IMG/VR virus record: IMGVR_UViG_3300037467_002622
Strand: one strand, 5' to 3'
DNA from: an uncultured virus (IMG/VR IMGVR_UViG_3300037467_002622)
Taxonomy: Duplodnaviria > Heunggongvirae > Uroviricota > Caudoviricetes
Length of the DNA: 20,000 bases
Numbering within the stretch: position 1 is the stretch's first letter; each line of letters starts with the position of its first letter. Below, in pieces: positions 3,940 through 12,564 of this stretch. The notes under the pieces were generated by a model. That model ran no database searches. It had not been told where the DNA came from and worked only from the letters and a program-made list of their open reading frames with translations. The position numbers and the translations under genes are program-made.

Positions 3940-4271
3940 TGCGCACCGTGATCCGGATCCTCGACGCCGAGCTGGACGGGCTCCGGCTGGACTGCGAGGA
4001 CACCGCGCGTGTGCATGTCTGGTGCACGACGCCCGGGTCCCGGCGGGCCTTCCTGACCTCCGGCGAGCCGCTCATGGAGTTCATGGCCTGGGCGCCGGAG
4101 GACTACAGCTCGGCGAACGTGGCCAGCCTGGTCGGCCTGCGGTTCATGGCCGAGTTCGACGAGCCCGCCGCCGAGCCTCCGCCGGGCGAGCGGATCGAGC
4201 TGCGCAACATCTCGTTCCCCAGCCCGATCCCGGCCAACTGGCTCTCCGGCTCCAGCGTGGAGGAGGCATGA
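3939..4271 (+). CDS. Hypothetical protein (110 aa, MRTVIRILDAEL...)
   Basis: Overlaps neighbours by TGATG and ATGA; 3' part of the listed 364-aa ORF. Confidence 0.72.
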   Translation: MRTVIRILDAELDGLRLDCEDTARVHVWCTTPGSRRAFLTSGEPLMEFMAWAPEDYSSANVASLVGLRFMAEFDEPAAEPPPGERIELRNISFPSPIPANWLSGSSVEEA

Positions 4272-4759
4272 CGAAGAAGCAGGGTCGCGGCGACCGCCTG
4301 AAGTACGCCGCCTCGATCGCCGGATTCGCCGCGCTCGGCGGCATCCCGCTGTCCGCCTGCGATGGTGCCTGGGACACCGCCAGCGCGCCGGATGCGCAGT
4401 ACGGCCTGGTCTGCGTCTCGCACGACACCGGCAACCGCGTGGACGACGACCAGTGCCCCGAGGACCGGATCGGCGACGACGGGTTCTACGACGGCGGCCC
4501 GCACGGGTCGTACGCGACCTGGTACCCGATCATCTCGACCTACGACGTCCCGGCCGTCGGCGCGCATGTGAACAACACCCCGCCGCTGCGGGTGGCCAAG
4601 GGCGCTCCGATCGCGCGCGGCGTGCCGACGACGGGCGCCTCGGCGAAGTCCGGCGGCATGACCTCGATCCAGCGCGGTGGCTTCGGTGTGAAGTCGGGCT
4701 CCGTCGGTGGCAAGGCCGGAGCGGGTGCGGCGGCCAAGGGCGGAAGCGGAGGCAGCTGA
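4268..4759 (+). CDS. Putative lipoprotein with Gly-rich RGGFG tail (DUF1190/YgiB-like, 163 aa)
   Basis: Basic N-terminus, hydrophobic stretch and lipobox LSAC; CV...RVDDDQC; C-terminal IQRGGFG followed by a G/A/S/K tail. Confidence 0.72.
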   Translation: MTKKQGRGDRLKYAASIAGFAALGGIPLSACDGAWDTASAPDAQYGLVCVSHDTGNRVDDDQCPEDRIGDDGFYDGGPHGSYATWYPIISTYDVPAVGAHVNNTPPLRVAKGAPIARGVPTTGASAKSGGMTSIQRGGFGVKSGSVGGKAGAGAAAKGGSGGS

Positions 4760-4787: not shown

Positions 4788-5165
4788 ATGACCGTCTCGA
4801 CGCAGCCGCATATGCGACTGGAGGGTGAGATCCCGGTCCCCTGCGGCTGCCAGCTGGGTTACCACCATCACCCCGATGGGGCGCCCTTGATCGAGCACCA
4901 CGAGGACGGCGAGGTCATCCGAGACCTGGGCCGTCACCCGTACTGCGTGGGCGTGTGCAAGTACTGGGGCACGCCGACCGAGGAGTTCGACTTCCGGCTG
5001 GTGACCGGCGCCCGGCTCTCCGAGCGTCGCGTCGCAACCGGCTACGAGATCACCGACTACACCGTCCCCGAGGCTCCCACCGTCTCGTGGGACAACGATC
5101 CCATCTCGGCCTGCGAGAAGGTGGGACTCGTCCGCCTGGCCGTCTGGAAGCGAAAGGAGCGGTGA
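4788..5165 (+). CDS. Hypothetical protein, Cys/His-rich (125 aa)
   Basis: ATG after GAGGA; good codon bias. Confidence 0.7.
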   Translation: MTVSTQPHMRLEGEIPVPCGCQLGYHHHPDGAPLIEHHEDGEVIRDLGRHPYCVGVCKYWGTPTEEFDFRLVTGARLSERRVATGYEITDYTVPEAPTVSWDNDPISACEKVGLVRLAVWKRKER

Positions 5166-9567: not shown

Positions 9568-10322
9568 TCAAGACCACCGATGTCCAGCCCACCGCGCTGG
9601 ATGTCAAGGTGCCCATCGGCGAGATCGTCGTCACCGTCCAGGAAGGCCTGAAGTACGGCTCCGTCGTGCTGGAGCCGATCCAGCACGACGACGAGGACGC
9701 CGCCTGGATGATCGAGAACGCCAAGATCGTGACCGCCGGGAGCAAGCTGGTGGTGGACATCCCGGCGAAGTCCTACGAGGGCGTGGTCGTCCACGGCGGC
9801 CGCAGTTCGGTCGTCATCGGGCGCGGCAACATCGTGATCGGCAACAACATCCGGATGCAGGGGAACTACGTCTCCGGCGGGGGCGCCATCCACATCGGCA
9901 GCTCGGGCGTGCGCGCGAAGATCGCCATCCCCTCGGGGGTCAGCGCGAAGCTGCGCGGCGAGGACACCGACGTCCGCGTGGTCGGCATGCTCGCCGCGCT
10001 GGACGTGCGCACGACGAACGGGAACATCGGCTCGGGCCAGCACCAGGAAGAGGTCGAGGTCGAGTCCACCAACGGCTCGATCTACCTGGAGTCGGTCGGG
10101 CGCGCCGAGGTGCACTCGACGAACGGCAGCATCACGGTCCAGCGGGTTCTCGGCAAGACCAAGCTGCGCGCCACCAACGGCAGCATCGACGCGGTCACCC
10201 AGACGGACAAGTTCACCGCGCGCACCACGAACGGCTCGTGCCGCGTCATCGCCGACGGTGTCCAGCTCGACGACGACGCGGTGAGCACGACCAACGGGCG
10301 CCGCAGCCTCATCCGGCGCTGA
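9564..10322 (+). CDS. DUF4097/putative-adhesin beta-strand repeat protein (252 aa)
   Basis: Six (T/S/A)TNG repeats about 16-20 aa apart. ATG follows CCGCACAGGAGG (9545-9556). No signal peptide is apparent. Confidence 0.85.
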   Translation: MIKTTDVQPTALDVKVPIGEIVVTVQEGLKYGSVVLEPIQHDDEDAAWMIENAKIVTAGSKLVVDIPAKSYEGVVVHGGRSSVVIGRGNIVIGNNIRMQGNYVSGGGAIHIGSSGVRAKIAIPSGVSAKLRGEDTDVRVVGMLAALDVRTTNGNIGSGQHQEEVEVESTNGSIYLESVGRAEVHSTNGSITVQRVLGKTKLRATNGSIDAVTQTDKFTARTTNGSCRVIADGVQLDDDAVSTTNGRRSLIRR

Positions 10323-10332
10323 GAGGGAGATC

Positions 10333-11019
10333 ATGAAGCACTTCTACGACCTGGAGTTCCTGGAGAACGGCCACACCATCGAGCTGATCTCCATCGGCAT
10401 CGTCTCCGACGACGGCAGCGAGTACTACGCGGTCAACTCCGACATCCAGACCGACAAGGATCTGCACGAGCGGATCTCCGAGCACGACTTCCTGGCCAAG
10501 GAGGTGATCAAGCACCTCCCGCTGGTCGACGACCACAAGGTGGCCGAGCAGCTGAAGGCGGCGGCCATGAGCAAGCGCACTCCGTACTTCGAGCCGTCGA
10601 GCAGGCAGTACACCGATGACGCGACCCGGCTGGACTGGGAGCTGGACATGACCGACATCGACGTCAAGCCGAAGTGGGTCATCGCCAACGAGGTGCAGAA
10701 GTACTTCCTCAACCGGCTCGACCACGGCATCCATGACCCGGAGATGGACGACGAGGGCGAGGTCGAGCTGTGGGCGAACTACGGCGCCTACGACCACGTG
10801 GGCTTGATGCAGCTCTGGGGCCCGATGATCAAGCGGCCGAAGAACCTGCCGATGTTCACCCACGACCTTCAGCACTTCGCACACGAGATCGGCTTCTCGC
10901 GTGCCGACTTCCCGGAGCAGGAGGCGGCCAAGCACGACGCGCTGGCCGACGCCCGGCACAACCAGCTCATCTGGTCGTTCCTGGACGCCCAGCGGCGCCG
11001 TCAGGAGGTCGGCGTCTGA
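10333..11019 (+). CDS. DEDDh 3'-5' exoribonuclease, RNase AS (Rv2179c/DUF5051)-like (228 aa)
   Basis: FYDLEFLENG.TIELISIGIV.DDG.EYYAV; LWANYGAYDHV.LMQLWG.M; HDALADAR. Confidence 0.92.
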   Translation: MKHFYDLEFLENGHTIELISIGIVSDDGSEYYAVNSDIQTDKDLHERISEHDFLAKEVIKHLPLVDDHKVAEQLKAAAMSKRTPYFEPSSRQYTDDATRLDWELDMTDIDVKPKWVIANEVQKYFLNRLDHGIHDPEMDDEGEVELWANYGAYDHVGLMQLWGPMIKRPKNLPMFTHDLQHFAHEIGFSRADFPEQEAAKHDALADARHNQLIWSFLDAQRRRQEVGV

Positions 11020-11336
11020 TGGCCTACCCGTTCCGCGAGGACTGGGTCAGGAAGGCCCTGGAGGAGAAGGACACCCTCCCGGTCTCGCACGCGGTCGCGC
11101 TCGGGTCGATCGCCTGGCACGCCTACGTGGCGACCGGACGCCAGTGCACGCTGGAGCGCGCCGCCGAAGCGGCGGAGATCGCCTACGAGGTCTTCCGCGA
11201 CGAGAAGGTCACGGTGCTCAGCTACCTCCAGATGATCGAGTACACCGAGGCGCTGATCGAAGAGCACTTGCGCAATACTGCCCATTCGGGTAGTGTGGAA
11301 CAGACAGGCGGGGAGCAAGACCCCGCATCCTCGTAA
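11019..11336 (+). CDS. Hypothetical protein (105 aa)
   Basis: TGATG coupling; the 3' end overlaps a promoter/operator. Confidence 0.7.
   Translation: MAYPFREDWVRKALEEKDTLPVSHAVALGSIAWHAYVATGRQCTLERAAEAAEIAYEVFRDEKVTVLSYLQMIEYTEALIEEHLRNTAHSGSVEQTGGEQDPASS
11268..11296 (+). promoter_or_regulatory. SigA-type promoter with operator variant CTGCCCATTCGGGTAG (11278-11293), likely driving the RNA cluster
   Basis: -35 TTGCGC, 17-bp spacer, -10 TAGTGT. CCGCACTGGAGG at 11393-11404. Confidence 0.72.
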
Positions 11337-11412
11337 CGGATCGGGGGCCCGCGCCGACTTCGGAGCAGGCCCCCGGCCACGAGACCACTTCACCGCACTG
11401 GAGGTGACCCCC

Positions 11413-11511
11413 ATGGGGTTCAAGATCAACGTCAAGACCGACGCCGAGGCCCAGGAAGAGCTGAACGAGATGCTGGGTAAGTGGCGGGACGACTGCCGCA
11501 AGGGAACGTAA
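11413..11511 (+). CDS. Micro-protein (32 aa, MGFKINVKTDAEAQEELNEMLGKWRDDCRKGT)
   Basis: ATG lies 8 nt after the extended RBS; GC3-rich codons; stops 9 nt before the tRNA-like element. Confidence 0.6.
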   Translation: MGFKINVKTDAEAQEELNEMLGKWRDDCRKGT

Positions 11512-11520
11512 GATCCAACC

Positions 11521-11623
11521 GGGGATGTAGCTCAGTTCGGAGAGAGCACGGTGTGGGTAACGGCCAGCGCGCAGGCCCAGTCCCTGTGATCCGAGGTCGG
11601 TGGTTCAAATCCACTCATCCCCA
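11521..11623 (+). ncRNA. tRNA-like RNA with expanded (45-nt) anticodon arm
   Basis: Acceptor GGGGATG/CATCCCC-A; D arm GCTC-AGTTCGGAGA-GAGC; AGGTC variable loop; T arm GGTGG-TTCAAAT-CCACT. The anticodon arm (11549-11593) is 28 nt longer than canonical. Confidence 0.8.
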
Positions 11624-11723
11624 CGGTCTCGTAAGTCGGCGGGGATGCCCGTGGTCGGCGCGAGATAGCTGGAAACCGTGAGGTCCGGTGGCCGGGCGGG
11701 GACACCCGTCCGGTCTGGCCTAC

Positions 11724-11795
11724 AGGGGTGTAGCTCAGCGGAAGAGCAGCCGTCTCCAAAGCGGCCGGTCGGGGGTTCGATCCCCTCCACCCCTG
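11724..11795 (+). tRNA. trnW: tRNA-Trp (CCA), 3' CCA not encoded
   Basis: AGGGGTG/CACCCCT-G; D arm GCTC/GAGC; anticodon arm GCCGT-CTCCAAA-GCGGC; T arm GGGGG-TTCGATC-CCCTC. Confidence 0.95.
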
Positions 11796-11938
11796 CGGCG
11801 GATGCCCGCACGCACCCTGGCGTGCAACCGGTTAGTCCCGGTCATGGGGCATCGGGAGGCCAACTCCAGGCACGGCGCGTTGCGATCCACCTGGAGCAAG
11901 ATCCCGGTGCGGCCGAGGGTTTACGGCCCCCGCGTTCT

Positions 11939-12018
11939 GGTGGTGCAGGAAGAGCGGTTCAACCCCGACGGCCTGCTGAAGAGGCCTCTTCAGCCGAGTT
12001 CGAGCCTCGGCACCACCC
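11939..12018 (+). ncRNA. Second atypical tRNA-like RNA (possible pseudo-tRNA)
   Basis: Acceptor GGTGGTG/CACCACC; T arm CCGAG-TTCGAGC-CTCGG; 5-bp stem GGCCT/AGGCC with non-canonical loop GCTGAAG; irregular D region. Confidence 0.62.
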
Positions 12019-12252
12019 CGGACCGAGATGACCAGCTGGACGACGTCGTGGCGCTGATGGGTGATAGGCGTCCCACCAGGCGAAGTCCAGCCCCTGCGGG
12101 GAAGCGGCGCGATCTCGGAGTCACCCAGCGCGCAGGGCGTAGAGCCGGAGGATGTCTCCGGACAGGGCGAGTTGCGGCCTGCGATTGATCACCTGCGCGC
12201 ACCTCTCGGCCGCACCTGGGCGGCCGAAGGAACCACACCGGAGGAGCACTAC

Positions 12253-12564
12253 ATGATCAACTCTTCGTGGCAGAAGTCTGTCCTGAGCGAGCCCAATGGC
12301 GGATCCTGCGTCGAGATCCAGCGAGGTCCGGACGGCGTCCGGGTGCGAGACACCAAGCTGGGCCCGGACAGCCCAGTCCTGTACTTCACCGACCTCGAAT
12401 GGGAGTGCCACCTCCTGGCGGTCAAGGGCGGCCAGCACGACCTTCCCGACAGCGACCGCGTGAGCGTGCTCGCCAACGCGATCAGTGCGCTGTCCGACGT
12501 CGAGATGCTGGAGCTGAGCGCCACCATCAAGACGCGCACGATGGAGCTGCTGCTGCGCGGCTGA
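12253..12564 (+). CDS. DUF397 (BldB/Scr2-like) protein with C-terminal extension (103 aa)
   Basis: WQKS..S...GGSCVEI....GVRVRDTK.....VLYF...EW...L.AVK.G; RBS variant CCACACCGGAGG (12233-12244). Confidence 0.9.
   Translation: MINSSWQKSVLSEPNGGSCVEIQRGPDGVRVRDTKLGPDSPVLYFTDLEWECHLLAVKGGQHDLPDSDRVSVLANAISALSDVEMLELSATIKTRTMELLLRG

Follow-up and report, generated by a model that had tools for sequence, protein, structure and literature searches.

A tRNA-shaped gene with an over-long anticodon arm in the tRNA operon of an uncultured soil phage

tRNA-like RNAs of phages and the operon under study

Phage tRNA clusters can encode stable tRNA-like RNAs of obscure role, examples being species 1 and 2 RNA of T4 and RNA1 and RNA2 of T5. 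Phage tRNAs themselves are known to counter tRNA-cutting defences. In the genome records, RNA1 and RNA2 of T5 are annotated as “tRNA-like stable RNA with unknown functions” (NC_005859), and rnaC and rnaD of T4 as species 1 and 2 RNA, small stable RNAs (NC_000866). The locus described here, a tRNA-shaped gene (gene 1) in the tRNA array of an uncultured soil phage, resembles these four genes in being encoded inside a phage tRNA cluster and in apparently not decoding; with T5 RNA1, T5 RNA2 and T4 rnaC, it also has in common an acceptor/T-arm minihelix without an anticodon loop. Three differences set it apart: (i) BLAST of gene 1 against a phage collection that includes T4 and T5 revealed no sequence similarity to their RNAs; (ii) the Rfam tRNA model, which fails to match T5 RNA1 and RNA2 at E up to 0.01, gives gene 1 a score of 48.5 bits, and gene 1 has a canonical D arm; (iii) the RNAs of T4 and T5 accumulate, whereas gene 1 is known here from sequence alone.

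A further likeness is to archaeal tRNA genes with short introns (e.g., L031-L034 of the metagenome contigs considered below), whose anticodon arms are likewise longer by some tens of bases. By hand reading, L031 and L033 keep a canonical loop beside the intron, whereas gene 1 has no such loop and, on inspection by hand, no recognisable bulge-helix-bulge motif, and its phage looks actinobacterial. The longest anticodon stem described for a natural tRNA is 6 bp, as far as the accessible text of the source goes (PMC7609411), and the accessible part of the literature, actinophages included, yielded no phage tRNA-shaped RNA with an arm such as that of gene 1.

The window, i.e., the whole stretch of 20,000 nt that was analysed, has a G+C content of 68%, and its genes lie almost all on the + strand. 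Family matches among the 31 window ORFs scanned include NUDIX, HNH, a LuxR-type regulator and DUF397, and a DnaQ-like/Rv2179c-like exonuclease is matched at 10333-11019. The best DNA matches of the window are to phages of Gordonia, Mycobacterium and Streptomyces; because of these matches to actinobacterial phages and the presence of DUF397, the host is most likely an actinobacterium. The sole syntenic relative that was found (L004/G001; IMG/VR contig IMGVR_UViG_3300041409_000610) has 155,347 bp and terminal repeats and is rated complete; its neighbouring DnaQ-like protein is 72% identical. Gene 1 occupies the first position (slot 1) of an array with the following features:

11268..11296, + strand: putative operon promoter, TTGCGC, 17 nt, TAGTGT; hexamers identical in L004, 5 of the 17 spacer bases different
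11297..11412, + strand: conserved leader with two G+C hairpins and a GGAGG ribosome-binding site, from the alignment to L004
11413..11511, + strand: small ORF of 32 codons (MGFKI...), directly upstream of gene 1; start codon and ribosome-binding site kept in L004
11521..11623, + strand: gene 1, tRNA-shaped, 103 nt; Rfam RF00005, 48.5 bits, E 8e-8, model positions 1-71
11724..11796, + strand: canonical tRNA-Trp(CCA), next in the array after gene 1; ARAGORN, and Rfam with 62.8 bits
11939..12018, + strand: gene 2, tRNA-shaped, 80 nt, in the same operon; minihelix scan, fold and conservation

Promoter and leader are identical to L004 in 137 of 151 aligned columns, including a long fully identical run, and the small ORF differs from its L004 counterpart by an in-frame 18-nt indel. 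A scan for the sigma-70 consensus did not call the TTGCGC-17-TAGTGT site, which we only infer to be the operon promoter; the stretch 11265-11511 as a whole may be a cis-regulatory leader for the tRNA operon. The tRNA-Trp is identical to that of L004 at 68 of 73 positions and to that of a third contig, L073, which was reached through its tRNA-Trp, at 72 of 73.

An over-long arm in a soil metagenome sequenced to about tenfold depth, with no second sample covering the element, might be the product of an assembly chimera or another metagenome assembly error. This explanation is extremely improbable: the probable source run also yields a Logan contig (21,373 nt) that agrees with the window at every position of 10300-12329, free of gaps, and the insert sits within an otherwise collinear, conserved operon. 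Because the Logan contig is independent, gene 1 is not the artefact of one assembler. The element is covered by the probable source run only, the depth being 0 over 11301-11608 in sample X2 and at most 0.91 in X3; the depth of 0 on gene 1 in the RNA library X7 has no bearing on expression or variation. The same library, from rhizosphere, contains a 163-nt contig (depth 162) identical to window positions 12035-12197, the start of the DUF397 ORF; the fold of this stretch is unremarkable on both strands (z about 0).

The body and the anticodon arm of gene 1

The initial annotation of this DNA had placed gene 1 correctly in sequence and coordinates, and had described textbook acceptor, D, variable and T regions around an anticodon arm 28 nt too long. 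Both points are confirmed by the Infernal/Rfam search that it had proposed, in which cmscan aligns gene 1 end to end with the tRNA family RF00005; the 48.5 bits lie above the gathering score of 29, and the alignment holds 39 nt where the model has 11. The parts of the gene are:

11521..11527, + strand: 5' strand of the acceptor stem, GGGGATG, pairing with 11616-11622 (CATCCCC); cmscan alignment and sequence
11530..11547, + strand: D arm, GCTC / AGTTCGGAGA / GAGC; cmscan alignment
11549..11593, + strand: anticodon-arm region of 45 nt (canonical, 17 nt) with base helix CGG/CCG; cmscan, fold and excision models
11555..11584, + strand: inner bulged hairpin, GGG-TAAC-GGCC-AGCGCGCA-GGCC-CAGT-CCC; minimum-energy fold of the arm
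11566-11573, + strand: apical loop AGCGCGCA, closed by GGCC/GGCC; sequence and fold
11585..11590, + strand: TGTGAT, which with C11584 reads CTGTGAT, the form of a GUG anticodon loop, without a closing 5-bp stem; sequence
11594..11615, + strand: variable region AGGTC and T arm GGTGG / TTCAAAT / CCACT; cmscan alignment

Outside the arm, gene 1 has the features expected of a tRNA: the acceptor stem is 7 bp long, the D arm carries G18-G19, and the T-loop is closed by a T stem of 5 bp. The 7 acceptor, 4 D and 5 T pairs are all standard (16/16, one of them G-U), and the elbow, in hand numbering, has U8, A14, G18-G19, a G15/C48 pair, G53-C61 and the T-loop TTCAAAT. A11623 serves as the discriminator, and CCA is not encoded. 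Unrelated organisms have the identical acceptor stem and T arm in tRNAs for Met, Phe and Val, so that an isotype is not assignable. When both strands of the whole window were scanned for a minihelix, i.e., an acceptor stem of 7 bp that adjoins a T stem of 5 bp with the loop TTCRA, exactly three matches were obtained in the 20 kb: gene 1, the tRNA-Trp and gene 2. As controls, 100 dinucleotide shuffles of the window gave no match (0/100), and the scan recovered T5 RNA1, T5 RNA2 and T4 rnaC. YrlA (RF02553) and Y RNA gave no match in the window at the gathering threshold, nor in 10900-12300 at E up to 5.

The minimum-energy fold of the isolated arm consists of the helices CGG/CCG, GGG/CCC and GGCC/GGCC and the loop AGCGCGCA, just the bulged hairpin that had been described. 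It is a weak structure, with 10 pairs in 45 nt, -13.6 kcal/mol and pair probabilities of 0.54-0.76; when the inner 39 nt were shuffled, 86% of 1000 sequences folded at least as well as the arm (z +1.0). The stability of the arm is at chance level. For the whole gene 1 RNA, the energy is -36.7 kcal/mol with the cloverleaf enforced, compared to an unconstrained optimum of -40.9 kcal/mol, in which the D arm is broken.

The apical loop at 11566-11573 indeed presents an A-flanked, self-complementary hexamer, as noted in the initial annotation, which likened it to the kissing-loop dimerisation hairpin of the HIV-1 DIS type. Two arms cofolded give an extended duplex of -44.3 kcal/mol, compared to 2 x -13.6 kcal/mol for the separate hairpins, which is expected of any palindromic hairpin, concentration and kinetics lying outside the model; the loop could possibly pair with that of a second copy. 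GCGCGC is not enriched in the window, with 24 occurrences compared to the approximately 30 expected from composition, and the palindromic loop is unremarkable, requiring no special explanation.

No second copy of the inserted sequence that might indicate its origin exists within the window, and the inner bulged hairpin (11555..11584) occurs there once at up to 3 mismatches. Two candidate sources were rejected: the stretch 11431-11454 of the small ORF matches at 17 of 24 positions, a chance level that 9 of 60 shuffles reach as well, and the L004 genome yields a weak match only, a 13-nt GC-rich run. An exact 12-mer, CCAGCGCGCAGG, occurs both at the apex of the arm (11564-11575) and at 12125-12136, 561 nt downstream within the DUF397 ORF, which is borderline with respect to chance.

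The arm offers no anticodon that could be read. A 5-bp anticodon stem with a 7-nt loop, U33 and a purine at 37, as a tRNA has it, is absent, and the CTGTGAT sequence is followed by only 3 bp and serves as the canonical loop in none of the excision models. With fixed arm borders, two 28-nt excisions leave 5 pairs and a 7-nt loop, UGGGUAA (with G33) and CCCUGUG (with C33 and U37), both lacking U33. The initial annotation had found no single 28-nt excision that restores a canonical loop; this result holds in a search widened to 1026 models, in which 0-2 nt could precede the stem, the variable region could measure 3-21 nt and the cut could fall anywhere; none of them combines 4 or more pairs with U33 and R37. 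The same 0/1026 rules out a long variable arm or a shifted register.

Splicing to a working decoder would nevertheless be conceivable for an intron-bearing tRNA. ARAGORN in its default mode misses gene 1, its sole call being the neighbouring tRNA-Trp(CCA), and in intron mode, another check that had been suggested, it forces a non-canonical tRNA-Pro(GGG) with a 23-nt intron; as a second candidate, a Thr(GGU)-like arm with a 5-bp stem and the loop UGGGUAA would result from the removal of 28 nt from the 3' stem strand. We consider such a decoder very unlikely. Besides the failure of all 1026 models, the tRNA-Pro model has a mismatched stem, G32, U37, an 11-nt variable region and zero bases between the D and anticodon stems, and the unspliced Thr-like arm would fold at +4.3 to +10.3 kcal/mol, compared to -13.6 kcal/mol for the observed fold. 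Around either 5-pair excision, no bulge-helix-bulge could be drawn by hand, and excision leaves no canonical anticodon stem-loop, unlike the removal of the intron from an intron-bearing tRNA. The remark in the initial annotation that the insert is too short for a self-splicing intron is correct, since 28 nt cannot hold a group I core; likewise, no Rfam intron family matches at gene 1, and no splicing endonuclease or RNA ligase family was found among the 31 window ORFs scanned. To our knowledge, actinobacterial hosts, the most likely ones here, have no protein-based tRNA splicing. We conclude from these models that the gene 1 RNA would be unable to decode as transcribed and that simple splicing would rescue nothing; the view of gene 1 as a non-decoding tRNA-like RNA is thus supported by the missing anticodon stem-loop, the failure of any single excision to make one and the shortness of the insert.

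Slot 1 and the look-alike genes in related phages

In L004, slot 1 (4217-4290) is occupied by a tRNA-Phe(GAA) of 73-74 nt without the insert, followed by tRNA-Trp and then tRNA-Lys(CTT). Like gene 1, this gene lies after the conserved leader and the small ORF and before tRNA-Trp; the T arms are one loop base apart, and the two genes have A73 as discriminator and the 3' flank ACGGTCTCG in common. Unlike gene 1, it has a 17-nt anticodon arm, CTCGC / CTGAAAC / GCGAG, and a shorter D loop, and the acceptor stems differ at three pairs, two of which are non-standard in L004. These two are adjacent (4:69 and 5:68), yet the L004 gene scores 62.6 bits. Outside the arm, 47 of 59 aligned columns are identical between the two genes (21/28 in the 5' part, 26/31 in the 3' part with flank), compared to 68/73 for tRNA-Trp and 74/80 for gene 2; slot 1 therefore evolves faster than its neighbours. 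The initial annotation had named beforehand, as an outcome that would speak against its reading, a relative with a normal tRNA in this place and the insert unconserved; this is what L004 shows, in a comparison with one relative.

Searches for an insert-bearing homologue elsewhere had a negative outcome in viral, metagenome and genome contig collections (exact and gapped DNA patterns) and in isolated phages (BLAST). The metagenome contigs yielded 8 long-armed tRNA loci, all unrelated, several of which look archaeal by hand reading; the viral contigs yielded 3, again all unrelated; and the 28 loci from genome contigs are all tRNAs of normal length (72-74 nt), mostly of Saccharibacteria. Of 50,697 phage records, 6 were matched by gene 1 in BLAST, each time partially and in the 3' half of a tRNA-Pro or tRNA-Phe gene. 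The tRNA array of Streptomyces phage Frankenweenie consists of 10 ordinary tRNAs and contains no extra look-alike, and Streptomyces phage ZL12 has the DnaQ-like gene in common with the window, with no tRNA genes annotated in the stretch examined. Over-long anticodon regions from the pattern scans include those of L018, L024 and L028 (viral), of L002 and L003, and of L031-L034 and L038 (metagenome); among them is an 83-nt gene whose arm is longer by about 9 nt and which recurs in three viral contigs, and several of the metagenome loci resemble archaeal intron-bearing tRNAs.

Gene 2, in the same operon, is likewise tRNA-shaped without an anticodon loop. It has a perfect acceptor stem and T arm and an odd D-side arm with an inner T-loop-like hairpin, and in place of the anticodon arm a 6-bp hairpin capped by GGCC, with no anticodon; the fold is a four-way junction of -35.3 kcal/mol (z -2.0). 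Gene 2 is missed by the Rfam tRNA model (E up to 5) and by default ARAGORN. The minihelix scan located its copies in L004 (~4981-5060, + strand) and L073 (~525-604, - strand), so that the gene (79-80 nt) is present in 3/3 related phages, with a mean column identity of 95%. Over the three copies, the 27 predicted pairs show 1 compensatory change (A-U to G-C, in the capped hairpin), 2 one-sided pair-keeping changes and 1 pair broken in the window. Gene 2 thus differs from gene 1, which occurs once and combines a loose bulged arm with a textbook D arm, by its occurrence in all three phages, its crisp 5-6-bp GGCC-capped hairpin, its non-tRNA D side and its invisibility to the Rfam tRNA model. Its conservation argues for a function, and the comparison suggests that gene 2 is an undescribed tRNA-shaped RNA family.

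A further tRNA-shaped gene is found in the two relatives:

L004 4744-4860, + strand: 116-nt tRNA-shaped gene right after tRNA-Lys; also in L073 at 725-841, - strand

Its D stem is GCTC/GAGC, its D loop carries a large insertion, and its 9-bp arm ends in a loop of 5 nt. Both this gene and tRNA-Lys are kept in the two relatives and missing from the window, where a deletion lies between 11797 and ~11850; because of these losses, the tRNA array of the window is undergoing reduction. Since gene 2 is conserved and the 116-nt gene is common to two relatives, non-decoding tRNA look-alikes are demonstrably maintained in this phage group. The family of gene 2 is a more solid gain than gene 1: standard tRNA finders and Rfam miss it, and it is open to comparative study across three phages.

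Origin and possible role of gene 1

Like a pseudogene, gene 1 is tRNA-derived and, as judged from its arm, unable to decode; what remains of its structure is an intact body, present in one copy with one distant orthologue, in a slot that changes faster than its neighbours. Our tentative preference is to see in gene 1 a decoding-dead derivative of the slot-1 tRNA gene, specific to this lineage, that would still be co-transcribed and probably processed like a tRNA. It may have arisen in the following manner: Some 28 nt of unremarkable G+C-rich sequence would have been inserted within the anticodon arm, or the whole arm would have been exchanged, with no change to the acceptor stem, D arm, elbow and T arm. 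The gene would still be co-transcribed, and the transcript would be cut by RNase P and 3' nucleases and then given CCA, resulting in a 103-nt (plus CCA) tRNA-shaped RNA that could not read a codon. Co-transcription and processing seem plausible because gene 1 follows the promoter-like site, leader and small ORF, all conserved, and tRNA-Trp comes directly after it; processing is suggested also by the known substrate requirements of RNase P and the CCA-adding enzyme.

Gene 1 may instead be a young tRNA look-alike under selection, of the sort known from phage tRNA clusters, which is quite possible. The intact acceptor, elbow and T arm would then allow tRNA-like processing and binding, and the altered arm would keep the RNA off the decoding site of the ribosome; it might act as a decoy or competitor for a host factor with the tRNA body as its recognition element, for example an end-modifying toxin or a defence nuclease that cuts tRNAs, a role that is purely conjectural, or as a processing scaffold of the operon. 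The same operon, after all, holds gene 2, found in 3/3 phages with its compensatory and pair-keeping changes, two relatives have the 116-nt look-alike in common, and the scan that detected gene 1 also recovers the annotated T5 RNA1 and RNA2 and T4 rnaC. Phage tRNAs that counter tRNA-targeting defences have been described, as far as the accessible text of these reports goes (PMC10264068, PMC11464382, PMC11555353). A selected gene 1 is harder to reconcile with an insert that is unconserved, L004 having tRNA-Phe in the slot, and with an arm whose stability is at chance level; as a single sequence, gene 1 offers no covariation, and no candidate partner emerged.

The insert is absent from slot 1 of L004, the one orthologous slot, and no insert-bearing homologue was found elsewhere; the arm is no stabler than expected by chance, and the conserved look-alikes have clean capped hairpins; slot 1 evolves fast in an array that is losing genes, and the L004 copy has two non-standard acceptor pairs. 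All of this favours the disabled tRNA gene. Against it stand the 16 intact stem pairs outside the arm and the intact elbow nucleotides, the fact that stem damage in slot 1 is all on the side of L004 and none in the window, and the conserved anticodon-less gene 2 in the same operon, which shows that RNAs of this type are selected in this phage group; moreover, the slot comparison comprises one relative. Since a long-dead gene should show damage, either the insertion is recent or the body is under selection, and we infer a recent insertion. The argument of the initial annotation that preservation of the other arms speaks against decay is a fair one in itself, although it cannot separate recent insertion from selection; the intact body is also weaker evidence than it seems because elements get flagged for intact-looking bodies. 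The selected mimic or decoy envisaged there is not demonstrated, given the normal slot in L004, an arm no stabler than shuffled sequence and GCGCGC at composition level, and the idea stays alive because of gene 2. On balance, a recently disabled tRNA gene is slightly more likely than an adapted mimic.

A bolder version, which we regard as rather unlikely, would make gene 1 a newly born member of a set of anticodon-less look-alikes in the tRNA operon of this soil actinophage group, beside gene 2 and the 116-nt gene of the relatives, observed shortly after the conversion of a tRNA gene, with tRNA-like processing and binding and the role of a sponge or decoy by which a host factor specific to the tRNA body would be occupied. 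Should gene 1 be selected, it would illustrate how the conversion of an ordinary tRNA gene into a look-alike begins, next to an older, conserved look-alike already present in the operon; as a fresh relic, it would represent ordinary gene decay in a shrinking tRNA array.

Two side observations concern the spacer between gene 1 and tRNA-Trp (11624-11723, + strand). It is strongly structured (-54.2 kcal/mol, z -3.0), with 1 of 200 shuffles folding as well. It also contains, at 11641-11647, a GGGGATG that copies the 5' acceptor strand of gene 1 and could pair with the 3' acceptor strand instead.
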